Notes under the pieces: model-generated
Database searches by the model: none
Told to the model about the DNA's origin: nothing
What the model saw: the letters and a program-made list of their open reading frames with translations, nothing else
Part shown: one piece after another, positions 4,727-63,561 of the stretch
Position numbering within the stretch: position 1 is the stretch's first letter
How the letters are laid out: every line of letters begins with the position of its first letter
Position numbers and translations under genes: made by a program
Origin: Clostridiales bacterium
GTDB lineage: Bacteria > Bacillota > Clostridia > Lachnospirales > CAG-274
Reading direction: 5' to 3'
DNA length: 64,000 bases
Assembly (NCBI GenBank): GCA_021200955.1
Contig: JAJQFU010000111.1
Location: forward strand, 214 to 64,213

Positions 4727-4745
4727 CCTCTAAAATTATATAAAA

Positions 4746-36654: not shown

Positions 36655-37003
36655 CTATAGCTGAAGCTGCTTAATTTACTGTTTAGCAAGAGTTAAACAG
36701 GGCAAAGAATTAAAATTTGAAGCAACAAAACGGAATCAGACAAAGATTATTTTTAAATACAACTTTTGACAAACTTTAAGGAAATTAAAGTGCAGTTTTC
36801 CGTCAGGAAAGCAAATTACACTTTATGTAGTAGGTCAGCTTTTTAATATCATCCTTACATTTTTGGCAGTTTACATACTTCTGTCGGGAAGATTTTTCCC
36901 TCTGCCCAATTTATCTGTTTAAGGAAGTGTATAAATTGAAAGCATTAAAAAAGCTTTTTCATACGGTTTTGCCGCTGCTGTTTTAATAACAGCGGTATAC
37001 ATT

Positions 37004-37213
37004 ATGACAAATAATATAGGACTTGAGGAAGGCTTGGATTTCGGAGCAGGTGCTTATTATTATGCAGATATACCCGGTTTTGAAAGCATTGTAAATACAA
37101 ATGCCTATACTTCGCCTGTACCTATGTGGGTTTTAATAGTATTGTTTTTGGCATGGGGGTACATAATGTATAAGCTTTGGCAGTACATAGCTTCGCATAA
37201 TACAAATAAATAA
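37004..37213 (+). CDS. small membrane protein (start uncertain; the frame is open from 36935)
   Basis: It has a C-terminal TM helix, PMWVLIVLFLAWGYIMYKLW. An additional in-frame upstream TM segment (SYGFAAAVLITAVYIM) has no canonical start codon. Confidence 0.4.
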   Translation: MTNNIGLEEGLDFGAGAYYYADIPGFESIVNTNAYTSPVPMWVLIVLFLAWGYIMYKLWQYIASHNTNK

Positions 37214-37286: not shown

Positions 37287-37314
37287 TTTACAATTACGGA
37301 AAAGAAGATATAAT
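37287..37314 (+). promoter_or_regulatory. candidate sigma-A promoter of the first sulfonate transporter / GRE operon
   Basis: TTTACA-16 nt-TATAAT lies ~70 nt upstream of the ATG at 37385. Confidence 0.4.
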
Positions 37315-37384
37315 ATTTTTTATACCTTTATTCATACTAAAACAGTATGAAAATAATTTTAATTTTCAGAAAGAGGGATTTAAT

Positions 37385-38380
37385 ATGAAAAAATTTATTT
37401 CACTTATATTAGCAGCAGGTTTGGCTTTGGGAACATTTACGGGCTGCGGAGGAAATTCCGCCGCTGAAGAAACATCTTCAAACTCTGAAGCAGTTGTTTT
37501 AAGAGTCGGTGCTCAGCCCTATCCTCTCTATTCTTCTATATATGTTGCCCACGAACTGGGATATTTGGAAGAAGAGCTTGAAGCTGTGGGAGCGGCCTAT
37601 GAATGGAAAGAGTTTAAATCAGGCTCCCTTGTTAATGAAGCTGCAGCAGCAGGGGAAGTTGATATGGGCTTTATGGCTGATTTGCCGGCGATAATTTCAA
37701 GGTCAACCGGTCAGCCTGTTGAAATAATATCCAATGTTGCCTACGGAGAAAAGGCTCTCGCCGTACTTGTAAGACCCGACTCGGATATCACAAGCGTTGC
37801 CGAGCTTGAAGGAAAGAAGGTTGCCTACACAACCGGCTCATATACACAGCACCTTATTGCTTTGCTTTTGGCAAATGAAGGTCTCAGCTTAGATGATATA
37901 GAGTCAATAAACTTGGCTGCCGGAGATCAGGCGGCGGCTCTTACAAACGGTGATGTTGAAGCCATTGTTACATGGGAGCAGTATGTATCTCAGTTTATAA
38001 GCGACGGAACGGCAAAGCTTCTTGCCGACGGAACAGGTGTAAAAAAGGGAAATATGATTACATATTTTGAAACAGACTATGCCGAGGCTCATCCCGATGT
38101 TGTTAAGGCATATATAAGAGCATTAAACAGAGCAGGCGAATATATAGAAGAAAATCCCGATGAAACGGCAGAACTGGCAGCAGAAACCTTCGGGGTTGAT
38201 ATAGATGTTATGAAAACAATATTGAGCCATCTGACATTTACCACAGAGCTTACTGAGGACGACATTGCCGAAATAACAAAAGTAAAGGACTTCTCCCTTG
38301 AACAGGGTCTTATAAGCAATGATATAGATATAAACAGCTTTATTAATACGGAATATGTTAATGCGGTAAATGCAGAATAA
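37385..38380 (+). CDS. ABC transporter substrate-binding lipoprotein, NMT1/SsuA/TauA (NitT/TauT) family
   Basis: The lipobox is LALGTFTGC. The fold pattern is typical of aliphatic sulfonate/taurine binding proteins. Cognate permease and ATPase genes follow. Confidence 0.8.
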   Translation: MKKFISLILAAGLALGTFTGCGGNSAAEETSSNSEAVVLRVGAQPYPLYSSIYVAHELGYLEEELEAVGAAYEWKEFKSGSLVNEAAAAGEVDMGFMADLPAIISRSTGQPVEIISNVAYGEKALAVLVRPDSDITSVAELEGKKVAYTTGSYTQHLIALLLANEGLSLDDIESINLAAGDQAAALTNGDVEAIVTWEQYVSQFISDGTAKLLADGTGVKKGNMITYFETDYAEAHPDVVKAYIRALNRAGEYIEENPDETAELAAETFGVDIDVMKTILSHLTFTTELTEDDIAEITKVKDFSLEQGLISNDIDINSFINTEYVNAVNAE

Positions 38381-38404
38381 TTTTAAAGTATCGGAGTGCG
38401 TAAT

Positions 38405-39172
38405 ATGAAAAACAGCGAAAAAAGAAATGTGAAATATTGGATTTTATATTTTGCTCTGCCTGTTATATTATTGATTATATGGGAGTCGGCAGACTTAGCA
38501 GGCTGTTTAAAGCCTTATACAATGCCTGCGCCTATTGCTGTTGTAAAAACTGCAATAGAATACATACAAAACGGAAAGCTCCCCGTAAATATAGCCGTCA
38601 GCTTCGGAAGAGTGACCTTGGGCTTTATACTTGCCTTAATCGGCGGCTTTTTAATAGGCATAGGCGCTGCAATATTCAAAAGCATTGAAATATTTACAGA
38701 TTTTGTCATACAAATTTTGAGGCCTATCCCACCCATTGCATGGATACCCCTTGCCATACTTTGGTTCGGAATAGGCTTGGAGTCAAAGGTGTTTATTATA
38801 TTTTTAGGGGCATTTTTCCCTATATTTATAAACACCTTCGACGGCATAAAAAATATTGACGGCAAATATTTTGAGCTTGCCCGGGTTTATGAAGTGCCTA
38901 AGCTTAAGCTTATAACCAAAATTGTTATCCCCGGTGCTTTGCCGCAGATAATGACCGGAATAAGACTGGGGCTCGGCAATGCATGGGTATGTGTTGTGGC
39001 TGCCGAAATGATAGGCGCCACAAGCGGCGTAGGCTATATGCTTGCGGACGGAAGAAGCCTTTCAAGACCCGATGTCGTTATTTTGGGTATGCTTATTGTA
39101 GGAATAATAGGCAAAATTATGGACGACCTTATTTTAAAATTCAGGGACAAAATAATTACATGGAATAAGTAG
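38405..39172 (+). CDS. ABC transporter permease (NitT/TauT family)
   Basis: It has six predicted TM segments and an EAA-like loop, YFELARVYEVPKLKLITKIVIPGALP. Confidence 0.85.
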   Translation: MKNSEKRNVKYWILYFALPVILLIIWESADLAGCLKPYTMPAPIAVVKTAIEYIQNGKLPVNIAVSFGRVTLGFILALIGGFLIGIGAAIFKSIEIFTDFVIQILRPIPPIAWIPLAILWFGIGLESKVFIIFLGAFFPIFINTFDGIKNIDGKYFELARVYEVPKLKLITKIVIPGALPQIMTGIRLGLGNAWVCVVAAEMIGATSGVGYMLADGRSLSRPDVVILGMLIVGIIGKIMDDLILKFRDKIITWNK

Positions 39173-39181
39173 GTGAACCGA

Positions 39182-39946
39182 ATGAAAAATATAGTTGAAA
39201 TTCATAATCTTAAAAAGGTTTTTAATGACGGCGGAGTTGTTACCGCTCTTGAAGATATTAATTTGGAAATTGAAGAAGGAAATTTTGTGTCTGTAATAGG
39301 AGGAAGCGGCTGCGGAAAAAGCACGCTTCTTCGCATTATAGGCGGACTTGACACAGACTATGAGGGGGAAGTTCTTGTAGACGGGAGGAAGGTTGAAAAG
39401 CCGTCAAGAGACAAAGGCTTTATATTTCAGGATCACAGACTTTTGCCATGGCTTACCGTAAAGGAAAACATAAAATTTTCGCTTCCCGAGGAGCAAAAAA
39501 ATAACAGCGGTCTTATACGGGAATACCTTGAAATGGTTGACCTTGAAGAATTTGAAAATTCCTACCCAAGTCAGCTTTCAGGCGGAATGGCTCAGAGGGT
39601 ATCCATAGCAAGAGCCCTTGCAAACAAACCGAAAATACTTCTTTTAGATGAGCCTTTCGGAGCATTGGATGCAATCACCAAAATAAAACTACAGGAACAG
39701 CTTCTTAAGATTTGGAAAAAAGAGCAAATAACAATGATAATTGTTACTCACGATATTGACGAGGCGGTCTATTTGGGCAGCAAGGTTATTGTTATGACAC
39801 CCAGACCCGGTAAAATAAAAAGAATACACACAGTGAACCTCGGATCACACAGACGGAGGACCGGTTCTGTTTTTACAGAGGCAAGGGATAGAATTTATAA
39901 TGAATTTTTTGAAGATGCCGAATTACCGATAGAGTACAACATATAA
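39182..39946 (+). CDS. ABC transporter ATP-binding protein (NitT/TauT family)
   Basis: Walker A is GGSGCGKST, the signature is LSGGMAQR and Walker B is ILLLDEPFGALD. Confidence 0.9.
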   Translation: MKNIVEIHNLKKVFNDGGVVTALEDINLEIEEGNFVSVIGGSGCGKSTLLRIIGGLDTDYEGEVLVDGRKVEKPSRDKGFIFQDHRLLPWLTVKENIKFSLPEEQKNNSGLIREYLEMVDLEEFENSYPSQLSGGMAQRVSIARALANKPKILLLDEPFGALDAITKIKLQEQLLKIWKKEQITMIIVTHDIDEAVYLGSKVIVMTPRPGKIKRIHTVNLGSHRRRTGSVFTEARDRIYNEFFEDAELPIEYNI

Positions 39947-39966
39947 AAACATAACGGAGGTCATTT

Positions 39967-42447
39967 ATGAGTATAAAGATTTTATCTCCTCAGGAGAAAA
40001 GAATACAAAATGAAATCAACAACAAAGGAGAGGGTTCGAAGCATTACAACAGAGCTGTAGATATTGTTAAGGAAATCAGGGGAAAGAAGCCCGTTATTGA
40101 TATTGAAAGAGGGCTTTATTTTACACGTTCCTTTAAGGAAACGGAAGGGCAGCCCCTGATTTTGAGATGGGCAAAGGCTCTTTACAATTATGCGGAAAAT
40201 GCTTCTGTTTACATAGACGAAAACCAGCTTATTGTGGGAAGAAGCGGCAAACAGGGTCGTTATGGCATACTCTATCCGGAGCTTGACGGAAATATCTTTA
40301 AAGAGGCTGTGGAAAAGCTGCCTGCACGGGAAAATTCTCCTTTTGATATTTCCGATGAAGATGCCGATATTGTAGTAAATGAAATAGCTCCCTACTGGGT
40401 AGGAAAAACGTTTCACGAAAGCTTTGCAAAATCACTGACAGAGGAAACATCAAAGCTGACATACAACAAAGACAGGGAACTGACTTCACGCTATATTGTA
40501 AATGAAACAGCTTCTTTCCGTTCCTCTCTGCAGTGGGTACACGATTATGAAATCGTACTTGAAAAGGGATTTAAGGGAATAAAGGAAGAAGCCGAGGAAA
40601 AGCTTGCCTCTTTAGACGAATACAGTCCTCTTGACTATACTGAAAAGAAGCCATTTTTGGAAGCCTTAATAATAACCTGCGATGCCATAGTTCTTTGGGC
40701 AAACAGACATGGTGATTTGGCAAAACAGCTTGCGGAAAAGGAAGAAAATCCAAAAAGAAAGGCCGAGCTTTTGAAAATTGCGGAAACCTGCCGGTATGTT
40801 CCGGAAAACCCTGCAAGAACATTTTACGAAGCTATGCAGTCTCAGTGGTTTACGCAGATGTTTTCAAGAATAGAGCAGAAAACCGGCACAATAATTTCAA
40901 ACGGCAGAATGGATCAATATTTATATCCTTTCTACAAAAGAGATATTGAAAAAGGCATAATAACAGATGACGAGGTTCAGGAGCTTTTTGAATGTATGTG
41001 GGCGGCAATGGCACAGTTTATAGACCTTTATCTTTCGGATACAGGCGGAGCCTTTAACGAAGGCTATGCCCACTGGGAAGCCGTAACCATAGGCGGACAG
41101 ACAAAGGAAGGTTTAGATGCCGTAAACGAACTTACATATATTCTTTTGAAGTCAAAGAGAGAATTTCCGCTTAACTATCCCGACCTTGCCGCAAGAATAC
41201 ATACAAGAAGTCCCAAAAGATATTTATATGAGGTTGCCGAAACAATAAAGGCAGGAGAGGGTTTCCCCAAGCTTATAAATGATGAGGACGTTATACCTCT
41301 TTTGCTTTCCAAAGGAGCAAGCTTTGAAGAGGCCTATGATTACAGCGTATCGGGCTGTGCCGAGTGCCGTATGCCAAACAGAGATACATATACAAGCCCC
41401 AATGCCTATATTAATTTTGCGGCGGCTCTTGAAATGGTTATTTACAACGGCAGAATGTTAAAATACGGTTCGGAACTCCTCGGACTTGAAACGGGAAATT
41501 TTGAGGATTTCAAAACCTTTGATGACCTTCTTTCCGCTTTCCTTAAACAGCAGAGATATTTCATAAAGCACGCTTTTATTCAGCAAAGAGAAATTATAAG
41601 GCTCAGAGCAGAGCATTTTGCCTCTCCCTTAGGCTCCGCCCTTCACAGGCTTTGCAGAGAAACCTATACAGATCTGCATCAGCCTAAAATAGAAGGCGGT
41701 ATAGATCTCGGCTATTTTGAATATATGGGCTTTGCAACGGTAGTAGATTCTCTTGCGGCAATTAAAAAGCTTGTTTTTGAAGAAAAGAAAATAACATTGG
41801 GTCAGCTTAAAACTGCTCTTGAAAATAACTTCAAGGGTTATGAGGCAGTACGTCAGCTTCTTGTTAATGCACCCAGCTACGGCAACGATAATCCTTACAC
41901 TGACAGCATAGGAAAGCTTCTTGACAGAGAAGCACAGGAGTTTACACGAAAATACGGAGCAGAGCTTGGGGTTCATATGGATTTAAGGCTTGTTCCCTTT
42001 ACGTCCCACGTTCCCTTTGGAAAGGTTGTCAGTGCCACACCAAACGGCAGATTTGCCTATACTCCCCTGTCAGACGGTTCAAGTGCATCTCAGGGGGCAG
42101 ACTTAAACGGTCCTACGGCAATTCTTCTTTCTAACTATGCCACAAAGAATTTTAATTATAACGAACATGCTGGCAGACTTTTAAATATTAAGCTGAGCCC
42201 TGCCTGTGTACAGGGTGATGTAGGTACTGAAAAGCTTGTAAGGTTTATTGAGGCTTGGAGAGATTTAAAGCTGTGGCACGTGCAGTTTAACGTACTTAAT
42301 ACGGAAACACTGAGACAGGCGCAGAAGCACCCGGAGGACTACAGAAACCTTTTGGTTCGTATTGCCGGCTACAGTGCATATTTTACGGAACTTACAAAAG
42401 ACTTACAGGACGATATTATTTCAAGAACGGAACACGAGGCCGTATAA
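39967..42447 (+). CDS. glycyl radical enzyme, candidate isethionate sulfite-lyase (IslA/IseG-like)
   Basis: The C-terminal glycyl-radical motif is LLVRIAGYSAYF and the Cys loop is VSGCAEC. Its 826-aa length fits. Its neighbours are sulfonate-type ABC importers, an activase, an Fe-ADH and a class-III aminotransferase. Substrate specificity is inferred from this context only. Confidence 0.8.
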   Translation: MSIKILSPQEKRIQNEINNKGEGSKHYNRAVDIVKEIRGKKPVIDIERGLYFTRSFKETEGQPLILRWAKALYNYAENASVYIDENQLIVGRSGKQGRYGILYPELDGNIFKEAVEKLPARENSPFDISDEDADIVVNEIAPYWVGKTFHESFAKSLTEETSKLTYNKDRELTSRYIVNETASFRSSLQWVHDYEIVLEKGFKGIKEEAEEKLASLDEYSPLDYTEKKPFLEALIITCDAIVLWANRHGDLAKQLAEKEENPKRKAELLKIAETCRYVPENPARTFYEAMQSQWFTQMFSRIEQKTGTIISNGRMDQYLYPFYKRDIEKGIITDDEVQELFECMWAAMAQFIDLYLSDTGGAFNEGYAHWEAVTIGGQTKEGLDAVNELTYILLKSKREFPLNYPDLAARIHTRSPKRYLYEVAETIKAGEGFPKLINDEDVIPLLLSKGASFEEAYDYSVSGCAECRMPNRDTYTSPNAYINFAAALEMVIYNGRMLKYGSELLGLETGNFEDFKTFDDLLSAFLKQQRYFIKHAFIQQREIIRLRAEHFASPLGSALHRLCRETYTDLHQPKIEGGIDLGYFEYMGFATVVDSLAAIKKLVFEEKKITLGQLKTALENNFKGYEAVRQLLVNAPSYGNDNPYTDSIGKLLDREAQEFTRKYGAELGVHMDLRLVPFTSHVPFGKVVSATPNGRFAYTPLSDGSSASQGADLNGPTAILLSNYATKNFNYNEHAGRLLNIKLSPACVQGDVGTEKLVRFIEAWRDLKLWHVQFNVLNTETLRQAQKHPEDYRNLLVRIAGYSAYFTELTKDLQDDIISRTEHEAV

Positions 42448-43340
42448 TGGGAGAAATCAGTTATGTCTTTAATATTCAGCGCTATTCTCTCCATGACGGA
42501 CCGGGGATAAGAACGATTATATTTCTTAAGGGCTGCCCAATGAGGTGCCGCTGGTGCTGCAACCCCGAATCTCAGGAAAGAAAGCCCGAAATATTCTATA
42601 CTGAAAGCAAATGTATAGGCTCAGAGGAATGCGGCTTTTGTAAAAATGTCTGCCCGGAAAAGGCAATAGACTTTAAGGGCAAAGCGGTTATTGACAGGAA
42701 AAAATGTATTAACTGCCTTAAGTGTGAAGCCGTTTGCCCTTCAAAGGCTGTAAGCGTTCAGGGCAGGCAATATACAGTGGATGAGCTTTTGGATATTGCC
42801 GAAAAGGACAGCATTTTTTACGGCAATGAGGGAGGACTTACCGTAAGCGGCGGCGAACCTCTCTCTCACGGGGATTTTCTGATTCAGCTGCTTAAAGAAG
42901 CAAGGAAAAGAAGAATAAATACAGCTACAGAAACCTGCGGCTGCGGCGATTATGAAGTGCTTTATGAAGCTGCGAAAAATCTTGATTATATATTGTTTGA
43001 CATAAAGTCATTAAATAATGAAAAGCACAGAAAATATACAGGCTGTGACAACAAAGTTATTTTAAACAATTTTAAACGGCTTTGCCGGGACTTTCCAAGT
43101 CTTAAAAAAAGAGTAAGAACCCCTGTTATTCCCGGTTTTAATGACAGTACAGATGATATAAAGGCTGTTCTTGATTTTATAAAGGATTTTCCCAATGTTT
43201 CATATGAGCCTTTAAAATATCACAGCTTCGGCAGAGGGAAATATTCATCTCTCGGCAGAGAATATGAGTTAGGGGACATTTCCCTTGATGAAAATATATT
43301 TGAAGAAATAAAAAATATTGTTAAAAAGGCAGGGTTTTAA
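42447..43340 (+). CDS. glycyl-radical enzyme activating protein (radical SAM)
   Basis: The radical-SAM cluster is GCPMRCRWCCNP (CX3CX2C). There are two ferredoxin-type motifs, CGFCKNVCP and CINCLKCEAVCP. Its start overlaps the GRE stop. Confidence 0.9.
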   Translation: MGEISYVFNIQRYSLHDGPGIRTIIFLKGCPMRCRWCCNPESQERKPEIFYTESKCIGSEECGFCKNVCPEKAIDFKGKAVIDRKKCINCLKCEAVCPSKAVSVQGRQYTVDELLDIAEKDSIFYGNEGGLTVSGGEPLSHGDFLIQLLKEARKRRINTATETCGCGDYEVLYEAAKNLDYILFDIKSLNNEKHRKYTGCDNKVILNNFKRLCRDFPSLKKRVRTPVIPGFNDSTDDIKAVLDFIKDFPNVSYEPLKYHSFGRGKYSSLGREYELGDISLDENIFEEIKNIVKKAGF

Positions 43341-43341
43341 T

Positions 43342-44439
43342 ATGAACTGGATATATAAACAGCCTGTTGAAATTTTTTTCGGCTGCGGAGAAATAAACAG
43401 AATATTTGACTTGGTTAAGGGATATAATGCTCCTTTAATTGTCTGCTCTCCTTATTTTGTAAGAAGCGGTTTAGCGGAAAATCTCAAAGCAGAAATTAAA
43501 AATGCCGGTATATTTTCAAATGTATCGCCAAACCCGGATATAAGGGAAGTAAATGAGTGCAGCGAAGTCTTAAGGCAAAATAAAAACGATATTATAATTG
43601 CTCTCGGCGGCGGAAGTGTTATTGACCTTGCAAAAGCGGCTTCTCTTAAGCTTAATGACATCAGGGAGGTTTGGGGAACAGGCAAAGACGTAACAGCAGA
43701 GCCTGTTCCTATAATAGCAGTTCCCACCACAGCCGGAACAGGCAGCGAGGTAACCTGCGTAAGCGTTTTAACAGACAGAAAAACAGACAGAAAGATGCCC
43801 CTTTCTTCCGAAAAGCTTTATCCCAAACAGGCGGTTGTTGACCCGGAGCTTTTACACTCCCTTCCTCCCCATATTACAGCTTCAAGCGGAATAGATGTTC
43901 TGTGCCACGCTGTTGAAGGCTTTTGGAGTAAAAATCATCAGCCGGTCTGTGATACTCTTGCCTTAAAAGCCGCAAAGCTGATATTAAAATATCTGCCGAC
44001 AGCTTATAAAGAGCCAGATAACAAAAACGCAAGGGAAAAAACGGCAGAGGCCTCTCTGCTTGCCGGGCTTGCCTTTAATCTGCCTAAAACAACGGCTTCC
44101 CATGCCTGTTCCTTTCCGCTTACAAGCATATACAGCATACCCCACGGAGAAGCCTGCGGACTTACTCTTGATTATTTTGTAAGAATAAACGGAGAGGGTG
44201 AACATACAAAGGAGCTTATCAAAGAGTTGGGTTATAAAAACGCAAATGAATTTGCAGATAAAATATACAGACTGAAAAAAGAAACGGGCTTAAGGACAGG
44301 TCTTGCGGACTTAAATTTAAGCGACGAAGCTGTAACAAGGCTGGTTGAACTAAGTCACCACCCCAATTTATATAACAACCCTGTTGAAATAACGGACGAT
44401 ATATTGTTTGATATGTACAATAAATTGAGAAAGGAATGA
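43342..44439 (+). CDS. iron-containing alcohol dehydrogenase, candidate sulfoacetaldehyde reductase
   Basis: It has the motifs ALGGGSVIDLAKA and PTTAGTGSEVT, plus His residues of the metal site. The function is inferred from pathway context. Confidence 0.75.
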   Translation: MNWIYKQPVEIFFGCGEINRIFDLVKGYNAPLIVCSPYFVRSGLAENLKAEIKNAGIFSNVSPNPDIREVNECSEVLRQNKNDIIIALGGGSVIDLAKAASLKLNDIREVWGTGKDVTAEPVPIIAVPTTAGTGSEVTCVSVLTDRKTDRKMPLSSEKLYPKQAVVDPELLHSLPPHITASSGIDVLCHAVEGFWSKNHQPVCDTLALKAAKLILKYLPTAYKEPDNKNAREKTAEASLLAGLAFNLPKTTASHACSFPLTSIYSIPHGEACGLTLDYFVRINGEGEHTKELIKELGYKNANEFADKIYRLKKETGLRTGLADLNLSDEAVTRLVELSHHPNLYNNPVEITDDILFDMYNKLRKE

Positions 44440-45779
44440 AAGCAATGTCGGAATTGACAAGAGAACAGGTTTTGGAATATGACGGAAAATATAATCAGCA
44501 CCCGTGGCTTACGGGAAATGTCGATGCAGTTCCCATCGAAAGAGCGGATGGCATATATTTTTGGGACTACAACGGAAAAAAATATTATGATATGTCAAGC
44601 CAGCTTGCAAATGTAAACTTAGGCTACGGCAATAAGGATATTACAGAAGCGGTAAAGTCACAGATTGAAAAGCTGCCTTATATTGCTCCTGCCCTTGCTT
44701 CGGGGCCTCGGTCGGAACTGGCAAAGCTGTTAATAGAATTAGCCCCCGACAATATGGAAAAGGTATTTTTTACCTGCGGCGGTTCAGACGCAAACGAAGC
44801 CGCTGTTTATGCCGCAAGAACATTTACAGGCAGAAGCAAGGTTTTTTCACGCTACAGAAGCTATCACGGCTCAACCTTAGGCTCGGCAAACCTTTCAGGT
44901 GATCCTCGCCGTTTTGCTCTTGAAAGACCTGCCGCAAACGGCTTTATAAAATTTTTCGACCCCTATGTATACCGCTCGGAAATAGAATTTAAAAGCGACA
45001 AAGAGGCTTCGGAATATTATCTCGGTCTTTTGGAGGATCAAATTCAATATGAAGGACCCGACCAAATTGCCGCAATTGAGGTTGAATCCATAACAGGGGC
45101 AAACGGTGTAATAATACCTCCCGACGGCTATTTACAGGGGCTCAGAGCCTTATGTGACAAATACGGCATACTTCTTATATGCGACGAGGTTATGGCAGGC
45201 TTCGGAAGAACAGGCAAAATGTTTGCCTTTGAAAACTGGGGAATTAAGCCCGACATTATTTCATTCGCCAAAGGTGTTACCTGCGGCTATGTTCAGCTGG
45301 GAGGAATTATTATAAGCAGTGAAATAGCCGACTATTTCAAGGACAAGGTTTTTCAATACGGTCTTACTTACAGCGGTCACAGCCTTGCCTGTGCGGCAGG
45401 TGTCGCCTGTGTAAATTATTACATAAACCACAATATTCTTGACCATGTAAATGAAGTGGGAAAGGTTTTCGGAGAGCTTTTGGAGAATCTGAAGGCAAAG
45501 CACAAATGTGTCGGCGACGTAAGGTATATAGGCCTTTTCGGAGCAGTTGAGCTTATGATGGACAGGGATAAAAAGATACCTCTTGTGCCTTACGGCTATG
45601 ACGAAAACAAAACAATGAGCTCTATAAAAGGATTGCTTTTTGAAAGAGGCATTTCTATTTTCGGAAGAGAAAACAATATTAATATAACTCCTCCTCTTAT
45701 TATTACGGAAGATGAACTGAGGGAGGCATTTAAAACGATCGACGAGGTTTTATATATCGTAGACGAAAAATATATTTAA
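44436..45779 (+). CDS. class-III PLP aminotransferase, candidate taurine:2-oxoacid aminotransferase
   Basis: It has the motifs GGSDANE, LICDEVMAGFGRTG and FAKGVT (PLP Lys region). The start overlaps the ADH stop (ATGA). Confidence 0.75.
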   Translation: MKAMSELTREQVLEYDGKYNQHPWLTGNVDAVPIERADGIYFWDYNGKKYYDMSSQLANVNLGYGNKDITEAVKSQIEKLPYIAPALASGPRSELAKLLIELAPDNMEKVFFTCGGSDANEAAVYAARTFTGRSKVFSRYRSYHGSTLGSANLSGDPRRFALERPAANGFIKFFDPYVYRSEIEFKSDKEASEYYLGLLEDQIQYEGPDQIAAIEVESITGANGVIIPPDGYLQGLRALCDKYGILLICDEVMAGFGRTGKMFAFENWGIKPDIISFAKGVTCGYVQLGGIIISSEIADYFKDKVFQYGLTYSGHSLACAAGVACVNYYINHNILDHVNEVGKVFGELLENLKAKHKCVGDVRYIGLFGAVELMMDRDKKIPLVPYGYDENKTMSSIKGLLFERGISIFGRENNINITPPLIITEDELREAFKTIDEVLYIVDEKYI

Positions 45780-45826
45780 TAAAACTCTGTTTGCCAAAAA
45801 AGTGAAAATATTTAAAATTTATTCAT

Positions 45827-45859
45827 ATCTGCCAATATTGACTGTTGGCAGATTTTTTA
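45827..45859 (+). terminator. rho-independent terminator after the aminotransferase gene
   Basis: ATCTGCCAA-N9-TTGGCAGAT is followed by TTTTTT. Confidence 0.65.
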
Positions 45860-45866
45860 TTATAAT
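45838..45866 (+). promoter_or_regulatory. near-consensus sigma-A promoter for the second transporter operon
   Basis: TTGACT-17 nt-TATAAT partly overlaps the terminator hairpin. Confidence 0.5.
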
Positions 45867-45894
45867 TTTACACATACTTAAAGGAGGAAAATAT

Positions 45895-45972
45895 ATGCAG
45901 ATTTTAAAAAGCGGCAGATATATATACGGCAAGCTTCTGTATGTATACAAACGATGTTGCGTTTATGAATGA
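45895..45972 (+). CDS. candidate 25-codon leader or small ORF (MQILKSGRYIYGKLLYVYKRCCVYE)
   Basis: A strong RBS, AGGAGG, lies 7 nt upstream of the ATG. The ORF sits between the promoter and the permease gene. It has tandem Cys codons near its end. It is below the ORF-track length cut-off. Confidence 0.3.
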   Translation: MQILKSGRYIYGKLLYVYKRCCVYE

Positions 45973-46012
45973 GTAAAAATAAACCGGCAGTTTACGAAAG
46001 GTGTAATGTAAT

Positions 46013-46786
46013 ATGAAATCAAAAAGTACCGAAAGAAAGCTGACTATAGCAACTGTTGTCATAATTTTTGCGGCATGGATTGCTGTTACAAACATAGGCA
46101 GTTTTTCCGAAACCATTATACCCTCGCCCCAAAGTGTTATACAAGCCTTTGTCAAAATAGTCAGAGACGGCTATAAAGGAAACACACTTATAACCCACAT
46201 TGCAACAAGTATGAGAAGGCTTATAATTGCCTATGCTCTCGTTGTTGTGACAGCCGTTCCCTTAGGTTTGTTAAGCGGCTATAATTCAAAGGTCAGGGCT
46301 GTATTGGAGACTATAATAGAGTTTTACAGACCTCTGCCCCCTCTTGCTTATTACACAATTTTGGTTTTGTGGATGGGCATTGATGAAAGTTCAAAGTTAG
46401 CTCTTTTATATCTTGCAGGCTTTGCCCCCATATACATAGCCTGTGTTTCGGGAGTTATGAGAATAAGGGCGGACTACATAAACGGAGCCTACACATTAGG
46501 AGCAAACAAAAGGCAGATATTCTTCTATGTAATCTTCCCGGCGGCTCTGACAGATATTTTCACAGGCTTAAGAACAGCTTTGGGCGTGGAATATACAACC
46601 CTTGTTGCGGCGGAAATGGTTGCCGCAACGGCAGGTATGGGCTGGCTTGTGCTTGATGCAAGCAATTATCTGCGAAGCGACATAGTATTTATGGGAGTAA
46701 TTATAATGGGAATTACGGGAATTTTACTTGATAAGATTATCCGTATTTTGGAAAACAGAATAGTTCACTGGAAAGGAAAGGCATAA
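46013..46786 (+). CDS. ABC transporter permease (NitT/TauT family), second system
   Basis: It is a multi-TM protein, paralogous by eye to the 38405-39172 product (for example PLPPLAYYTILVLWMGI versus PIPPIAWIPLAILWFGI). Confidence 0.85.
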   Translation: MKSKSTERKLTIATVVIIFAAWIAVTNIGSFSETIIPSPQSVIQAFVKIVRDGYKGNTLITHIATSMRRLIIAYALVVVTAVPLGLLSGYNSKVRAVLETIIEFYRPLPPLAYYTILVLWMGIDESSKLALLYLAGFAPIYIACVSGVMRIRADYINGAYTLGANKRQIFFYVIFPAALTDIFTGLRTALGVEYTTLVAAEMVAATAGMGWLVLDASNYLRSDIVFMGVIIMGITGILLDKIIRILENRIVHWKGKA

Positions 46787-46807
46787 AGCCTAAAAGGAGA
46801 AATAAAC

Positions 46808-47842
46808 ATGAAAAGATTTTTAAGTATTTTATTAACAGCAGCAACAGTATTGACATTAAGTGCCTGCGGCTCATCTTCATCTTCAACCGCCTCATCGGAT
46901 ACAGCGGCTTCGGAAACAGACACAACAAAAGATACAAATGACACTGTTGTAATAGGAACAATGAACCTTGTAAACGCAGACCTTATAGCACAGTATGAGG
47001 AATATTATGAAAACGAGCTGGGGCTTCCCGTTAAGCTTGTAACCTTCGATTCAGGAAAAGACGTTAATACCGCTCTTGCGGCAGGAAGCGTTGACATTTC
47101 CGAGCTTGGTTCATCTCCCTCAGCTTTGGGACTTTCAAGCGGAACTGATTTTAAGGTGTTTTGGATAGGCGATATATTGGGAGCGGCAGAGTCCCTTGTT
47201 GTTAAAAACGATTCGGGCATAAATTCTGTTCAGGACTTGGTCGGCAAGAAAATAGCCACACCCTTTGCTTCGACATCTCATTACAGCCTTTTAAATGCCA
47301 TTAAGTCAGAAGGCATAAACGAAAACGATGTTACTCTTTTAGACCTTCAGCCGGCTGATATATATGCCGCTTGGCAAAGAGGAGACATTGACGGAGCTTA
47401 CATATGGTATCCTGTTTTGGATCAGCTTTTGGAGGACGGAAAGGTTATAACTCATTCGGGAGAATTAGCCGAAAAGGATATTATAACAGGGGATCTTAAT
47501 GTTGTAAGAACCGAATTTGCGGAAAAACACCCTGACGTGGTTGTAAATTATGTTAAGGCTCAGATTAAGGGCAATAACCTTCTTTTAAATGACAGCGAAA
47601 CAGCGGCGGCTGAAATAGCTTCTGTTCTTGAAATAAGCGAGGAAGATGCAGCAAGCCAGATTACTCAGTATGAATATTTAACAGCGGAAGAACAAATCGA
47701 CTTCATAGAAAACAAACTGCCTTCCGTTCTTAAAAACACAGCCGACTTCCTTGTGGAACAGGACAGCATTAAATCCGCTCTCAGCTTAGATGAATTTAAA
47801 GACAAGGTCACAACGGAATATATCGAAGAAGCAATTAAATAA
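46808..47842 (+). CDS. ABC transporter substrate-binding lipoprotein (TauA/SsuA-like), second system
   Basis: The lipobox is LTLSAC, followed by an S/T-rich linker. The body is that of a periplasmic-binding-protein type 2 fold. Confidence 0.8.
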   Translation: MKRFLSILLTAATVLTLSACGSSSSSTASSDTAASETDTTKDTNDTVVIGTMNLVNADLIAQYEEYYENELGLPVKLVTFDSGKDVNTALAAGSVDISELGSSPSALGLSSGTDFKVFWIGDILGAAESLVVKNDSGINSVQDLVGKKIATPFASTSHYSLLNAIKSEGINENDVTLLDLQPADIYAAWQRGDIDGAYIWYPVLDQLLEDGKVITHSGELAEKDIITGDLNVVRTEFAEKHPDVVVNYVKAQIKGNNLLLNDSETAAAEIASVLEISEEDAASQITQYEYLTAEEQIDFIENKLPSVLKNTADFLVEQDSIKSALSLDEFKDKVTTEYIEEAIK

Positions 47843-47855
47843 GCAGGTGATGTAA

Positions 47856-48701
47856 GTGGCAGACGAATGGAAAGAAAAACTATATGAGCCTTCGGGAGAG
47901 CTTATAGCTTTAAATAATGTAAAGTATGATGATACCCTTATCTCAATAAAAGACGTTGATTTAGCCTATGCAGGTGTTTCCGGAGAGGATATTAAGGCAA
48001 TAGAGGACATTAACTTCAATATTTACAGAGGAGAGTTTGTCTGCGTTCTGGGTCCCTCGGGCTGCGGCAAAAGCACACTTCTTAAAATTCTTGCCGGCTT
48101 TATAAAGCCTACATCGGGAGTTGTTGAGCTTGACGGCAAAAAAATTGAGGGAACAGACTGGCACAGAGGTGTTGTATTTCAAAATCCCCCGCTGTTTGAA
48201 TGGTTCTCCGTAAGAGATAATGTAGCCTTCGGCCCCAAAATGAGGGGTATTCCCAAAGCAGAATATACAAGGCTTACAGATGAATATTTGGAAAAGGTAG
48301 GCTTATCGGACTTTGCCGACAAAAAAATATATGAGCTTTCAGGAGGTATGAAACAGAGAGTTTCAATAGCAAGAACTCTTATAAATGACCCCGAAATTCT
48401 TCTTATGGACGAGCCTTTCGGTGCTCTTGACGCTCTGACAAGAGAAAACGTTCAGGACTTAACCCGAAAAATATGGTGGAGCAGCGGAAAGACAATATTT
48501 TTTATAACCCACGATGTGGAAGAAGCTTTACTCTTAGGCTCAAGAATAATCGTCCTGAGCAAGCACCCCGGCAGAGTAATCGAGGATATTTCCGTAACCT
48601 TTTCAAGAGAAATTGCCGAAGGAGCCGGAACAGACATAAAATTCACCGATACCTTTTACAAATACAGAGAAAAACTTTTAAAGCTTATAAATTCACAATA
48701 A
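47856..48701 (+). CDS. ABC transporter ATP-binding protein, second system
   Basis: Walker A is GPSGCGKST, the signature is LSGGMKQR and Walker B is ILLMDEPFGALD. Confidence 0.9.
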   Translation: MADEWKEKLYEPSGELIALNNVKYDDTLISIKDVDLAYAGVSGEDIKAIEDINFNIYRGEFVCVLGPSGCGKSTLLKILAGFIKPTSGVVELDGKKIEGTDWHRGVVFQNPPLFEWFSVRDNVAFGPKMRGIPKAEYTRLTDEYLEKVGLSDFADKKIYELSGGMKQRVSIARTLINDPEILLMDEPFGALDALTRENVQDLTRKIWWSSGKTIFFITHDVEEALLLGSRIIVLSKHPGRVIEDISVTFSREIAEGAGTDIKFTDTFYKYREKLLKLINSQ

Positions 48702-48767
48702 AATATTTAAGGAAACGATGGTTTCTGTCGTTTCCTTATTATTTTACAGACAGGAGTGTGATTTAGT

Positions 48768-51572
48768 ATGAAAATGAAAAAAATAACAGCAGCTTTTACA
48801 CTGTCGGCAATTTTGATTTCGTCGGTTTTTCCGCAGAATGTTTTTGCAGCCGGCTTTGCCGATGTAGCAGAAAATGCTTGGTATGCGGAAAGTGTGGATT
48901 ATGTAACCGACAATGGACTTATGGTTGGTATATCCGATAATGAGTTTGACCCCGACGGAATATTAACCAGAGGTATGTTTATCACTGTTCTTCACCGTTT
49001 GGAGGATTCTCCTCAGGCTGAAGAAAGCAGCGGTTTTACCGATGTAAATGAAAATGACTGGTTCTCTGCCGCTGTCAACTGGGGTGTTGAAAACGGTTTA
49101 ACCTCGGGAACAAGTTCAGACAGATTTGAACCGTATGGGTCACTGACAAGAGAACAGCTTGCAGTCTTTTTGCAGAGATATTATACGTTTAAGGGCGAAA
49201 ATACAGATAATACCGCTAAAGACGAGATTTCACTGTTTTCAGACCGATACAGCATCTCCGACTGGGCTGAAGATGCTGTTGCTTGGGCATATAATTCGGG
49301 AATTATTATAGGGGTTTCAGACAGCGAATTAAGCCCGAAAGGAATTGTTACAAGAGCGCAGACAGCGGTTATACTTTATAAAATAACCGGCGGAGAAGTC
49401 GGCGGCAAGTCAAAAGAAATTGATTCAGACAACTTATCAGACGATGAAACCGACAGTGAAGCACCAACGGAAGATGCTGTTTCCGAAACAACAACCGTAA
49501 AGAGAAGCGGAAGCTCAGGCGGAGGTTCAAGCAGCAGAAAAACTTCAACAACCGAAACAACCACCGAAGCGGTGGCAGAGGAAACAACCGAAGAATATAT
49601 AAACCTGTCAGACTATGAAAATACGCAGCTGTACTACAATGGTACGATTTATACGGTTGATGAAGATTATGAGGGTATATACGGCGATGTTCCCACTGCG
49701 GAATCGGTTTTGGTCGGCAACGGAAAAATTATTGCTGTAGCTTATACTGACAGCGAAAATGAAAAGCTGGAAAGAAGTGCCGAGCTTTACAATTCCAAAC
49801 AAATTAATTTAGACGGAAAAACAGTTGTCCCCGCTTTTCAGGACGCTCACAGCCATTTGGATATGGCAGATCAATATCCCGATGCAGGACCGGCAGCAGG
49901 AGTTACGGGTTACGATTCTTTGATAAGTGAAGGGAAAAAGGCATTACAGTCTTGGCTTGATGATAATCCCGAAATAACTTCAGGTTCGGCTTTGGTTACA
50001 GATGAAGCAGCCTCGGATTCGGCTGTTTCGGTAAGCTCTTACTGGTTTGTAACCCACGGATATGACAACACAGCATTTAAAGAAGACGGCTATGCCCACC
50101 CCACAAGGCAGATATTAGATGAAATTTCAACTGAATATCCTATTGTTTATATTCATACATCCGACCATATGGGTGTTGTAAATACGGCGGCATTAAAGCT
50201 TATAATCGAATCAGAGGAAGCACAGTCTGTTTACAGAACATATGTATATCCCAACTGGGACGGAATAGGCTTAACCCAGTCGGAAATAGCTTCGGGAATA
50301 GCAGACGGAACCTTTGACATTTGGGATCACTTTGACGATTTGACAGGGCTTTTAAGAGAAAACGGTTTTTATCAGCTTTACGGATATATGGGCGGACCCT
50401 ATGTTTTAGGCAACTCAGACGCCACTAAGACGGGAACAACCGAAGAAATTATAGCCCACGCAATGGAACTGTATGCAAGCTACGGCATTACCACAGGTGT
50501 AATAGGCGGCGGCAGCAGTGCGGCAAAAATTGCGGCAGTGGAAAGTCTTTATGAATCCGGAGAAGCAATTATTGATATACAGCATATGATGGGTTCTTTG
50601 GGAAGCTGGTTCGGAGAAGACGGCAGTGCCGGTCAAACCTACGAAAGTGGTTCAAAGGTAACAGGTGTTAAGATTTTTCAAGACGGCTCTCCCCAAGGCA
50701 AAACAGCATGGTTTTCCGTTGATGAAAATGACCCCGACGGAGCTAAGGGCGGCTATTATAAATTAGAGGGAGAAATAAGAACAGATGAGGATACATATTA
50801 TTGGGGTGAAGATAACAAAAAAATCGAAGATGATGCCTTGCTATCAGAGTTTGTTGAACTGATTGAAGCAAAGGTTCAGTTTACATCTCACTGCAACGGA
50901 ACAGGAGCAATTCAGCAGTTTATCGACAATTACGAGACCGCCTTAAAACAGGTTTACGGCGTAAGCGAGCTTACACAGGAAATTATTGATGAAGCAAAGG
51001 AAAATGTACGTCCTACAATTATTCACGCACAAACAGCAACAGCTGACCAAGTCAAAAAGTGCAGCGAACTGGGAATAAGTATTTCATTCTTTACAGATCA
51101 TGTGTATTATTTCGGCGATTATCATTTAAGCTCCACTCTGGGTCCCGTCAGAGGACAGACTATCAGCCCTATGGCAACAGCGTTGTCCTACGGCGATATT
51201 AATGTTACAATGCACCAAGACACACCTGTGGCAGTTCCCAATATGCTGTTCTCAATTTACAATGCTGTAAATCGTATAACAAGAGACGGTGAAGAAATAG
51301 GTCACGGAGCTGTGGTAAACGGCTATGAAACAACAGATGAAAGAATAGATGCCTATAATGCCCTTAAAGCAGTTACGATAAATTCCGCATGGCAGAATTT
51401 TGACGAAAATGAAAAGGGTTCGATAACTGAGGGCAAACAGGCAGATTTTGCGATTCTGAGTATAGACCCCCTCAGCCGGGAATTTTCAGAACTTGATACA
51501 GAAGCGGCAAGAACAGGCGCATTTGTGGTTCAGACAATTAATGACGGGAATACAGTCTATACATTAGAATAA
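48768..51572 (+). CDS. cell-surface (3x SLH domain) metal-dependent amidohydrolase-family protein
   Basis: It has a signal peptide and three SLH repeats (FADV..NAWYAESVDYV, FTDV..NDWFSAAVNW, FSDRYSISDWAEDAVAWA). An S/T/E-rich linker follows. The amidohydrolase motifs are FQDAHSHL, TSHCNGTG, IIHAQ, FFTDH and MHQDTP. Confidence 0.8.
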   Translation: MKMKKITAAFTLSAILISSVFPQNVFAAGFADVAENAWYAESVDYVTDNGLMVGISDNEFDPDGILTRGMFITVLHRLEDSPQAEESSGFTDVNENDWFSAAVNWGVENGLTSGTSSDRFEPYGSLTREQLAVFLQRYYTFKGENTDNTAKDEISLFSDRYSISDWAEDAVAWAYNSGIIIGVSDSELSPKGIVTRAQTAVILYKITGGEVGGKSKEIDSDNLSDDETDSEAPTEDAVSETTTVKRSGSSGGGSSSRKTSTTETTTEAVAEETTEEYINLSDYENTQLYYNGTIYTVDEDYEGIYGDVPTAESVLVGNGKIIAVAYTDSENEKLERSAELYNSKQINLDGKTVVPAFQDAHSHLDMADQYPDAGPAAGVTGYDSLISEGKKALQSWLDDNPEITSGSALVTDEAASDSAVSVSSYWFVTHGYDNTAFKEDGYAHPTRQILDEISTEYPIVYIHTSDHMGVVNTAALKLIIESEEAQSVYRTYVYPNWDGIGLTQSEIASGIADGTFDIWDHFDDLTGLLRENGFYQLYGYMGGPYVLGNSDATKTGTTEEIIAHAMELYASYGITTGVIGGGSSAAKIAAVESLYESGEAIIDIQHMMGSLGSWFGEDGSAGQTYESGSKVTGVKIFQDGSPQGKTAWFSVDENDPDGAKGGYYKLEGEIRTDEDTYYWGEDNKKIEDDALLSEFVELIEAKVQFTSHCNGTGAIQQFIDNYETALKQVYGVSELTQEIIDEAKENVRPTIIHAQTATADQVKKCSELGISISFFTDHVYYFGDYHLSSTLGPVRGQTISPMATALSYGDINVTMHQDTPVAVPNMLFSIYNAVNRITRDGEEIGHGAVVNGYETTDERIDAYNALKAVTINSAWQNFDENEKGSITEGKQADFAILSIDPLSREFSELDTEAARTGAFVVQTINDGNTVYTLE

Positions 51573-51624: not shown

Positions 51625-52890
51625 TCATGCCGATTTAAAGTTTTTAATAATTTTACAGGTTTTTTCTATATCTTCATTGCAGTGGGCGGCGGAGATAAAC
51701 ATGGCCTCAAACTGTGAGGGAGCAATATATATTCCGTTTTCCAAAAGGTATGAAAAAAATTCGGCATATTTTTTTGTGTCGGAGGAAAGAGCGTCATCAT
51801 AGTTTTCAACCTTTCTGTCTGTGAAGAAGCCGCAGAGAAGGGAACCGATCCGGTTTACACTTAAACCGATTTCTTTCAGTGCATTTTCAAGCCCGGCGGC
51901 TTTTCGGTCTATTTCGGCGTAAATGTTTTTGTTTTCAGAGAGAATTTTAAGTGCGGTGATTCCGGCTGTTGTGGCTATGGGATTACCCGAAAGGGTTCCT
52001 GCCTGATAGACCTTTCCTATGGGAGATATGCACTGCATAATTTCCCTTCTGCCGCCGTAAACTGCCATAGGCATACCGCCGCCTACAATTTTGCCCAAAG
52101 CCGTCATATCCGGCTTTATGCCGTAATACTCCTGTGCACCGCCTAAGCCCAAACGGAAACCGGTTATAACCTCGTCAAATATAAGAACGGAATTATATTT
52201 ATCCGTTATATTCCTTAAAAAGGTAAGAAAGCCCGGTTTAGGCAGAACAACTCCCATATTTGCCGCCACAGGTTCAACAATAATACAGGCAATTTCGTTT
52301 CCGTATTTTTCAAAAAGTTCTCTTACTGAATTTTCATCATTATATTCGGCAACAAGAGTGTTTTGAGTATATGACTTCGGCACTCCGTCACTGTCGGGAA
52401 CGGCTGATGTTAAAGCGGCTGAGCCTGCCTTTACAAGCAGACCGTCGGAGTGGCCGTGATAACAGCCTTTAAATTTAACTATCATGCCTCTGTCGGTATA
52501 TCCTCTTGCGGCCCTTATGGCGGACATCGTGGCTTCCGTTCCGGAATTTACCATTCGCATAACTTCAATTGAAGGCATAAGGCTTTTAATAAGTTCCGCA
52601 AGTTCAACCTCATTTCGTGTAGGTGCACCGAATGTCAATCCCTTATCGCAAGCGGCTTTTACCGCTTCGATTATTTTGGGGTGGCTGTGACCCAGTATAC
52701 CGGGACCCCATGAACACACATAATCTATATATTCATTTCCGTCAGCATCATAAATTTTATCGCCCTTTGCTCTGTCTATAAAAAGAGGTGTCCTTCCCAC
52801 AGCGGAAAAAGCCCTTACGGGGCTGTTTACCCCTCCGGGCATAAGGCTTACGGCTCGTTTGTACAGTTTCTTTGAAATTTCTTCTTTCAC
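51625..52890 (-). CDS. hemL: glutamate-1-semialdehyde 2,1-aminomutase
   Basis: It has PGGVNSPVRAF and the class-III aminotransferase fold. I chose the GTG at 52890, 7 nt after GGAG, which avoids an overlap with hemB. Confidence 0.9.
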   Translation of the reverse strand: MKEEISKKLYKRAVSLMPGGVNSPVRAFSAVGRTPLFIDRAKGDKIYDADGNEYIDYVCSWGPGILGHSHPKIIEAVKAACDKGLTFGAPTRNEVELAELIKSLMPSIEVMRMVNSGTEATMSAIRAARGYTDRGMIVKFKGCYHGHSDGLLVKAGSAALTSAVPDSDGVPKSYTQNTLVAEYNDENSVRELFEKYGNEIACIIVEPVAANMGVVLPKPGFLTFLRNITDKYNSVLIFDEVITGFRLGLGGAQEYYGIKPDMTALGKIVGGGMPMAVYGGRREIMQCISPIGKVYQAGTLSGNPIATTAGITALKILSENKNIYAEIDRKAAGLENALKEIGLSVNRIGSLLCGFFTDRKVENYDDALSSDTKKYAEFFSYLLENGIYIAPSQFEAMFISAAHCNEDIEKTCKIIKNFKSA

Positions 52891-52894
52891 AAAA

Positions 52895-53869
52895 TCACTC
52901 CTGTTCCTTTTCGGAAAGCCAGTCCGCAATATCCAAAGCGTGGTAGGTTATAATTATTTTTGCTCCGGCTCTTTTTATTGCCGTTATATTTTCCAAAACA
53001 ATTTTTTTCTCGTCTATCCAGCCCATATTTGCGGCGGCTTTAACCATAGAATATTCACCGCTGACGTTGTAGGCGGCTATCGTATGGTCAAAACGGACAC
53101 TTGCTTCTTTTATAACATCGAGATATGCAAGAGCAGGCTTAACCATAACAATATCGGCTCCTTCGTCAATGTCATATTGAATCTCTCTCATAGCCATTTT
53201 TGCATTGGCGCTGTCCATTTGATAAGACTTTCTGTCACCGAATTTCGGGGCGGAATCTGCGGCTTCTCTGAAAGGACCGTAATATGCCGAGGCATATTTG
53301 GCACTGTATGCCATAATAGGTGTATTTATAAAGTCCTTTTCATCAAGAGCCTGTCTTATTGCTCCTACTCTGCCGTCCATCATATCCGACGGAGCAATTA
53401 TATCTGCTCCTGCTTCAACAAGGCTTATTGACATTTTGCAAAGCAGCTTCAGCGTTTCGTCATTCAAAATATTCCCGTTCCTTACAAGTCCGCAGTGGCC
53501 ATGTGATGTATATTCGCAAAGACATACATCGGCTATAACGATTAAATCAGGATATTTTTCCTTAATATGCCTTACCGCTCTTTGAGTAACTCCGTCTTTA
53601 TTATAGGCTTCGCTTGCCTTTTCGTCCTTATAACCCGGTATTCCGAAAATAAGTATTGCCTTAATTCCCTTTCGGCTCACTCTTTCAAGCTCTTCGTCAA
53701 GCCTGTCCACCGAATACTGATAAATCCCCGGCATTGATTCAACGGCATTTTTTATATTCTCACCTTCGATTACAAATACAGGATAAACCAAATCCCTTAA
53801 ATCAATCTTGGTTTCCCTCACAAATGCTCTGATATTGGGGCTTGTTCTGAGCCTTCTCATTCTCTGCAT
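52895..53869 (-). CDS. hemB: porphobilinogen synthase (delta-aminolevulinate dehydratase)
   Basis: It has the motifs RRLRTSPNIRAFVRET, DVCLCEYTSHGHCG (Cys-rich metal site) and MVKPALAYLD. The start was chosen at the ATG that follows GGAGGA. Confidence 0.9.
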   Translation of the reverse strand: MQRMRRLRTSPNIRAFVRETKIDLRDLVYPVFVIEGENIKNAVESMPGIYQYSVDRLDEELERVSRKGIKAILIFGIPGYKDEKASEAYNKDGVTQRAVRHIKEKYPDLIVIADVCLCEYTSHGHCGLVRNGNILNDETLKLLCKMSISLVEAGADIIAPSDMMDGRVGAIRQALDEKDFINTPIMAYSAKYASAYYGPFREAADSAPKFGDRKSYQMDSANAKMAMREIQYDIDEGADIVMVKPALAYLDVIKEASVRFDHTIAAYNVSGEYSMVKAAANMGWIDEKKIVLENITAIKRAGAKIIITYHALDIADWLSEKEQE

Positions 53870-56533: not shown

Positions 56534-56535
56534 AA

Positions 56536-57594: not shown

Positions 57595-57622
57595 CGTATC
57601 ACCTCTTTTAAGGAAACAATAA

Positions 57623-58555: not shown

Positions 58556-58649
58556 TTCAATTCCTCCCTATTTATATTCCGGTTCGGGCGTGGCGAGAGC
58601 AACACCTCTCCGTCACCCTACGGGTGACACCTCCCCTTAAAAGGGGAGG

Positions 58650-59696: not shown

Positions 59697-59724
59697 TAAG
59701 TCAGCCCCCTTTCTTTTATCGGGC

Positions 59725-60972: not shown

Positions 60973-60983
60973 AAAACCACTCC

Positions 60984-63109: not shown

Positions 63110-63122
63110 ATTGAAACCCTCC

Positions 63123-63533: not shown

Positions 63534-63561
63534 TTTAAACCCTCCATTGCTATGTATTGTT

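Follow-up and report, generated by a model that had tools for sequence, protein, structure and literature searches.

A stretch of 64,000 nucleotides from a Clostridiales bacterium (Bacillota; Clostridia; Lachnospirales; CAG-274; assembly GCA_021200955.1, contig JAJQFU010000111.1), hereafter the window, carries a cluster of ten genes (37385-48701; coordinates are positions in the window) that very probably forms a two-module locus for anoxic scavenging of sulfonates, in which an isethionate module (A) and a taurine module (B) are combined with assimilation of the released sulfite. The pathway itself, that is, oxygen-free uptake of taurine and isethionate with sulfur stripped off as sulfite, is established in gut bacteria, and the locus in the window is a well-preserved example. 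The present analysis adds the probable division of labor between two importers, with isethionate as the most likely cargo of importer 1 and taurine as the proposed cargo of importer 2; an assimilatory context; and the finding that the database name of the key lyase is uninformative.

In the proposed scheme, taurine would enter through the TauABC-like importer 2 of module B and would be converted by a Toa-type aminotransferase to sulfoacetaldehyde, also giving usable nitrogen, after which a TauF-type reductase would produce isethionate. Free isethionate would be brought in by the SsuA-like importer 1 of module A, and the IslA/IseG-type lyase of this module, together with its radical-SAM activase, would cleave isethionate of both origins to sulfite and acetaldehyde. 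The sulfite would be reduced by a small siroheme sulfite reductase whose gene lies ~13 kb downstream, neighboring cysteine and homocysteine synthases would fix the resulting sulfide, and the acetaldehyde would probably just be reduced to ethanol. The route from taurine through sulfoacetaldehyde and isethionate to sulfite and acetaldehyde had been proposed in a first-pass annotation of the window, and is backed by close homology to the characterized Toa, TauF and IslA/IseG enzymes.

All ten open reading frames (ORFs) lie on the plus strand, and their families, which we assigned with Pfam and NCBIfam, bear out the gene order read in that annotation: substrate-binding protein (SBP), permease and ATPase of importer 1, glycyl radical enzyme, radical-SAM activase, iron-dependent alcohol dehydrogenase (Fe-ADH), class-III aminotransferase, and permease, SBP and ATPase of importer 2. 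The terminator and promoter expected between the aminotransferase and the second importer are found there too, as a terminator-like hairpin of 11 pairs with a T run (45827-45853) overlapping a near-consensus promoter, TTGACT-17-TATAAT (45838-45866), and this hairpin/promoter element (45827-45866) is the border of two transcription units. The two importers had been called paralogous, which holds at the family level but not beyond it, the identity between the two sets being only 29% for the SBPs, 28% for the permeases and 45% for the ATPases.

Sequence comparison supports the 826-aa glycyl radical enzyme (39967-42447; PFL-like and Gly_radical domains) as an isethionate sulfite-lyase of the IslA/IseG type, predicted to yield sulfite and acetaldehyde. 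Its best matches among solved structures are IslA of Bilophila (7KQ3, 1200 bits) and IseG of Desulfovibrio (5YMR, 1186 bits), followed by HpsG (6LON, 1081 bits). The strings RIAGYSAYF and GCAEC, already picked out in the first reading of the sequence, are visible in the alignments and contain, respectively, the radical Gly801 and residues Cys464 and Glu466 of the Cys-x-Glu thiyl loop; in IslA numbering, Cys468 and Glu470 are kept along with the radical glycine. Alignment with IslA, IseG and HpsG, a check that had been suggested for the Arg and Gln residues involved in sulfonate binding, showed that Arg189, Gln193 and Arg678 (IslA numbering) are kept, with FRSSLQW and DLRLVPF aligning at these places. 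Because this triad is common to all three solved C-S lyases, HpsG included (review PMC13450708), it cannot by itself fix the substrate. The isethionate-pocket residues Trp374, Thr312, Val680 and Phe682 are all kept as well. When the pairwise alignments of the lyase with IslA, IseG and HpsG were compared side by side, five sites were found at which IslA and IseG have one residue or stretch in common and HpsG has another, namely, Phe188/Tyr, Ser191/Ala, His196/Pro, GGAFNEG/GNEFQEG and Phe682/Ile, and at each of these sites, the lyase of the window has the IslA/IseG residue. Across an alignment that adds 14 related lyases, the discriminating positions show little or no variation, both in lyases encoded with the taurine enzymes and in those encoded alone with an importer. 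The activating enzyme of the IslB/IseH type is encoded by the following gene (42447-43340) and combines a Radical_SAM domain with two ferredoxin-type cluster motifs (TIGR02494, 331 bits, cut-off 174).

Three features of the lyase could be taken to indicate an HpsG-type sulfolyase acting on dihydroxypropanesulfonate (DHPS), or an enzyme for another C3 sulfonate, in a locus that degrades DHPS. The enzyme matches the NCBIfam model NF048011, “(2S)-3-sulfopropanediol dehydratase” (HpsG-type), with 1497 bits, above the cut-off of 1000; it shares the Arg/Gln/Arg triad with HpsG; and its position 192 is Leu, as in HpsG. However, in a control on the solved sequences, IslA (1503 bits) and IseG (1554 bits) matched the model about as well as HpsG itself did (1509 bits), so that the HpsG name is uninformative on the substrate of the lyase, and we rejected it. 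The argument from Leu192 is weakened by the report that Ile192 is not conserved among IslA homologues (PMC8473560). Furthermore, the lyase is more than 100 bits closer to IslA/IseG than to HpsG, has none of the HpsG residues at the five discriminating sites, and is flanked by Toa and TauF, which make isethionate. We therefore regard a DHPS-degrading locus as highly improbable, and the earlier caveat that related glycyl radical enzymes act on DHPS is settled in favor of isethionate by the residues that separate IslA/IseG from HpsG. Genome annotation based on NF048011 will mislabel isethionate lyases as DHPS enzymes, and the main value of the analysis lies in the correct annotation of the lyase, given that the control showed the automated name to be untrustworthy.

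Among the related loci, L030 encodes a second lyase copy (3881-6337), 59% identical, beside another ABC importer. This copy differs exactly at the discriminating places (SSMRSALQ, GVKFNEG and RYVPV) and, judging by these residues, is a candidate for a lyase with a different sulfonate substrate.

The two enzymes that would supply isethionate from taurine are most similar to proteins from Bifidobacterium kashiwanohense. In comparisons with all solved structures, the aminotransferase (44436-45779) matched Toa, a taurine:2-oxoglutarate aminotransferase (6JIX), with 521 bits over residues 4-445, the next match being at 261 bits, and the Fe-ADH (43318-44439) matched the Fe-dependent sulfoacetaldehyde reductase TauF (6JKO) with 432 bits, the next being at 164 bits. 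Six of the seven published TauF active-site residues (D192, Q196, F252, T257, H261, F265 and H275; PMC6616044) are identical in the Fe-ADH. These matches support assignment of the aminotransferase to the Toa type and of the Fe-ADH to the TauF type. The true start of the Fe-ADH is likely the ATG at 43342, directly after the activase stop, rather than the TTG at 43318.

Importer 1 consists of the SsuA-like lipoprotein SBP1 (37385-38380; NMT1/SsuA_fam TIGR01728, 198 bits, cut-off 163), the permease PERM1 (38396-39172; BPD_transp_1, with SaoP and SsuC as the top NCBIfam matches, both below cut-off) and the ATPase ATP1 (39173-39946; ABC_tran). In importer 2, the TauA-like lipoprotein SBP2 (46808-47842) is encoded between a TauC-like permease, PERM2 (46013-46786; top NCBIfam match TauC, 225 bits), and a TauB-like ATPase, ATP2 (47856-48701; top match TauB, 266 bits), the latter two matches being below cut-off. 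Among solved structures, SBP2 is closest to TauA of Escherichia coli (6SSY, 180 bits, compared with 65 bits for SsuA), and SBP1 is closest to E. coli SsuA (2X26, 96 bits, compared with 63 bits for TauA). TauA holds the taurine amine through Glu106, Thr132 and Asp205, of which Glu106 is essential and Asp205, absent from SsuA, determines selectivity (PMC6906117). Alignment of 12 sequences shows all three residues in SBP2 and four orthologues; these five proteins also keep Ser60/Gly61 and Gly79 of the sulfonate site, and SBP2 retains Trp176. In the same columns as the amine ligands, SBP1 and its four orthologues have Leu, Tyr and a four-residue deletion, and in addition, the Ser and Glu of SsuA are replaced by Tyr and Leu in SBP1. 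Lacking the three amine ligands of TauA, SBP1 does not appear to be built to hold an ammonium group.

We further mapped the proteins of the window onto 75 loci with lyases 62-98% identical to that of the window. The SsuA-like set adjoins the lyase in ~40 of these loci, almost always in the order SBP-permease-ATPase-lyase-activase, and it lies directly upstream of the lyase in ~36 of the 40. In ~19 of the ~40, no aminotransferase or alcohol dehydrogenase is present in the flanks (in 10 of these loci, both flanks reach the full 10 kb). The TauABC-like set is found in 21 of the 75 loci, 7 or 8 times without the SsuA-like set, and a Toa-type aminotransferase accompanies it in all 19 cases that are not cut by a contig end. 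Among 40 related genomes, the lyase is present in five (G002, G005, G011, G018 and G021). Four of these five contain SBP1-type proteins, encoded on the lyase contigs, and four contain SBP2-type proteins, and neither type occurs elsewhere among the 40. One of the lyase-bearing genomes, G018, has the lyase and SBP1, and lacks both SBP2 and Toa.

We infer the substrate of each importer from the binding-site residues combined with this gene co-occurrence. Given that importer 1 is the sole partner of the lyase and its activase in ~19 loci, its cargo must be the lyase substrate, most likely isethionate, and taurine is proposed as the cargo of importer 2. There is a precedent in Rhodobacter capsulatus, where growth with isethionate as the sulfur source depends on an SsuABC-type importer and not on TauABC (PMC11423573). 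Membership of both importers in the NitT/TauT family and the known promiscuity of SsuA-type proteins (PMC6906117) would suit a different arrangement, with importer 1 taking another sulfonate or the two importers being redundant taurine systems. This arrangement seems unlikely because SBP1 lacks the entire set of amine-binding residues of TauA, SBP1-type proteins are confined to lyase-bearing relatives, and the lyase pocket is unchanged in the ~19 loci where importer 1 is the only partner. Thus, the first-pass guess that the importers serve taurine and isethionate is supported by the binding sites and the co-travelling genes, whereas its alternative, an N-acyl-taurine, receives no support from the importers. 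The isethionate carriers known from sulfate reducers belong to the TRAP or MFS type (PMC6453916), and we found no characterization of an ABC-type carrier for isethionate in gut anaerobes in the literature searched; the SsuA-like importer, whose genes are joined to those of IslA/IseG in many gut Firmicutes and bifidobacteria, can be argued to be such an ABC-type isethionate importer. Two copies of the SsuA-like, isethionate-type binding protein are found in locus L003 (4805 and 7481) and in genome G021 (contigs C11 and C91).

Downstream of the locus, the minus strand carries a sulfur-assimilation array (51625-63960) with siroheme, cysteine, homocysteine and sulfite reductase genes. The siroheme genes are hemL, hemB, cobA-hemD, sirC-hemC and hemA, and the others include cysK and genes for an AraC-type regulator, an O-acetylhomoserine sulfhydrylase, a ThiF/MoeB-like enzyme and a JAMM-type protein. 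Besides the small siroheme sulfite reductase (62240-63136, minus strand), no NIR_SIR protein was found in a scan of the entire 2.5-Mb genome. The array is the probable sink for the sulfite, and this gene neighborhood points to sulfur assimilation as the purpose of the locus, the physical linkage of sulfonate cleavage with cysteine genes and the sole sulfite reductase favoring sulfur nutrition over sulfide production. Taurine uptake and sulfite reduction are also physically linked in a related locus, L008, where a gene for a 286-aa small sulfite reductase (2096-2956) is located directly upstream of the taurine permease. No microcompartment genes are present in the locus. The genome contains no match to AdhE or an acylating aldehyde dehydrogenase and only stand-alone Fe-ADHs, so that the acetaldehyde is probably converted to ethanol.

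The same enzymes could serve mainly for nitrogen scavenging or for energy, through sulfite respiration or the carbon of acetaldehyde, rather than for sulfur assimilation. Indeed, glutamate carrying the taurine nitrogen is a product of Toa, the first description of TauF clusters concerned nitrogen assimilation (PMC6616044), and in Bilophila and Desulfovibrio, IslA supports sulfite respiration. However, a route serving nitrogen alone would end in the export of isethionate, with no use for the lyase or an isethionate importer. The genome also lacks a second NIR_SIR protein, its one small assimilatory-type enzyme being encoded among cysK, metY-like and siroheme genes, and microcompartment and acylating aldehyde dehydrogenase genes are missing. 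A locus devoted primarily to nitrogen or energy accordingly appears improbable. The two-module explanation leaves room for nitrogen to be gained as well as sulfur, as a by-product of transamination.

Several observations, in addition to the NF048011 match, weigh against the two-module explanation. Neither SBP attains the curated equivalog cut-off for TauA or SsuA (SBP2 reaches 236 bits with TIGR01729, the TauA equivalog, where the cut-off is 304). Gln196 of the B. kashiwanohense TauF, the one active-site residue that is not conserved, is His in the Fe-ADH of the window. The assimilatory role is read from the gene neighborhood, and the array is on the opposite strand, with an inserted gene between it and the locus. 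Finally, loci consisting of module A only could hold the taurine enzymes elsewhere in the respective genomes; the genome checked in this respect was G018, which is 82% complete.

Xing et al. 2019 reportedly described a taurine sulfur-assimilation cluster in Clostridium butyricum that contains Toa, TauF, IseG and IseH. This cluster is said to share with the locus of the window the same four enzymes, a strictly anaerobic fermenting Firmicute as the host and sulfur supply as the proposed purpose, but to differ in gene order, importer 1 preceding the lyase in the window, and in that the window locus abuts sulfite reductase, siroheme and cysteine genes. The related locus L033 of Clostridium chromiireducens has both importer sets, as does the window. 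The same combination, together with the lyase, is found in two Bifidobacterium loci (L055 and L068). The cluster of B. kashiwanohense itself, which supplied the solved structures nearest to the aminotransferase and the reductase (6JIX and 6JKO), differs in that it was described as a nitrogen route ending in isethionate (PMC6616044).

The Tpa-SarD-IslAB system of Bilophila wadsworthia and IseGH of Desulfovibrio, which provide the top solved matches of the lyase, share with it the chemistry and the catalytic residues, but these systems are respiratory (Dsr), are often housed in microcompartments, employ SarD instead of TauF, and rely on TRAP or MFS carriers for isethionate where the window has ABC importers. 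With regard to transport, the parallels lie with E. coli TauABC, whose taurine-binding residues are kept in SBP2 (PMC6906117), and with R. capsulatus, where the SsuABC-type importer required for isethionate is encoded in an isethionate-induced locus that also holds tauABC (PMC11423573). Identity is, however, only ~27%, the Ser and Glu of E. coli SsuA are replaced in SBP1, as noted above, and desulfonation in these bacteria is carried out by oxygenases or a nitrogenase-like enzyme, not by a glycyl radical enzyme.

The inserted gene downstream of ATP2 (48768-51572) encodes a 934-aa protein with a signal peptide, three SLH domains, a Ser/Thr/Glu-rich linker and a large Amidohydro_3 domain (residues ~285-934). 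Enzymes of the Amidohydro_3 family have been reported as metal-dependent, taurine-selective bile salt hydrolases (mBSH) linked to taurine genes (2026 preprint PMC13081988), and Amidohydro_3 genes are found inside the taurine clusters of three related loci (L018, L062 and L068), which makes the adjacency in the window suggestive. The characterized mBSH clusters comprise enzymes with at least 40% identity to the founding enzyme. The protein of the window keeps the metal-binding motifs of the family. Of the mBSH taurine-recognition residues (S144, Q290, N337 and H393; PMC13081988), the Ser, Gln and His, which are conserved family-wide, are kept according to a tentative mapping via a Romboutsia protein (P0186), and the Asn is replaced by Thr. 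The amidohydrolase might act at the cell surface and supply importer 2 with taurine split from conjugates outside the cell (for example, N-acyl taurines or taurine-conjugated bile acids), but we consider this role doubtful. If it were real, the recently proposed metal-dependent bile salt hydrolases would include a branch that is exported and bound to the wall, and the sulfur-scavenging locus would extend to host bile salts.

Several lines of evidence weaken the case for the amidohydrolase as an integral part of the locus. A strong terminator-like hairpin of 14 pairs (48708-48738, plus strand), which closes the second importer operon, stands between ATP2 and the amidohydrolase gene. The segment 48702-51558 is absent from a 97%-identical relative, where the ATPase gene and hemL converge on one terminator, and no homologue of the amidohydrolase was found in the 40 related genomes. 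Segment 48702-51572, which separates the taurine importer from hemL, is a strain-specific insertion. The amidohydrolase falls into a separate, large unannotated clade of ~690-940 aa, mostly SLH-bearing proteins with several insertions, and six genomic contexts of clade members (45-81% identity) contained no taurine or sulfonate genes. Its identity to the relatives linked to taurine clusters is ~31% overall and 44% over the C-terminal 300 residues. Compared with mBSH (PMC13081988), the Pfam family and the metal-binding motifs are shared, but the SLH-anchored clade is distinct and its linkage to taurine genes is not conserved. Elsewhere in the window, a protein (15362-16702) contains a region resembling the polysaccharide pyruvyl transferase CsaB, with 85 bits, below the cut-off; CsaB-like activity makes the wall polymer bound by SLH domains, which fits real wall anchoring of the amidohydrolase.

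The locus is accessory and patchy among relatives. It is present in 2 of the 10 genomes of the genus and decayed in a third, G005 (contigs C19, C102 and C51), with several stop codons in the lyase and SBP2; it is also scattered across Firmicutes, bifidobacteria and other bacteria. In the 97%-identical relative (locus L002, contig C125 of G002), 832 bp are missing at ~8061-8070, fusing the aminotransferase to the permease; this may be genuine decay or a fault in the assembly.

Ahead of the first operon, there is a promoter-like site, TTTACA-16-TATAAT (37287-37314, plus strand), and between its predicted -10 box and the first gene lies a perfect palindrome, TTCATAC-N7-GTATGAA (37331-37351). The palindrome occurs once in the window, with 0.02 copies expected by chance, and is a candidate operator for the first operon. 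No riboswitch or leader RNA of any Rfam family was detected at gathering thresholds anywhere in the window. A 25-codon ORF with a strong ribosome-binding site, two Cys codons and the end ...RCCVYE (45895-45972) precedes the second importer. We rejected it as a Cys-Cys leader because it is not conserved upstream of the permease in related loci L004 and L008; the RNA in this region folds no better than shuffled sequences (z = -0.03). Small ORFs are also present at 36940-37212, inside the 730-bp gap before the locus, and one frame of ~69 codons seems, by eye, to be hydrophobic.

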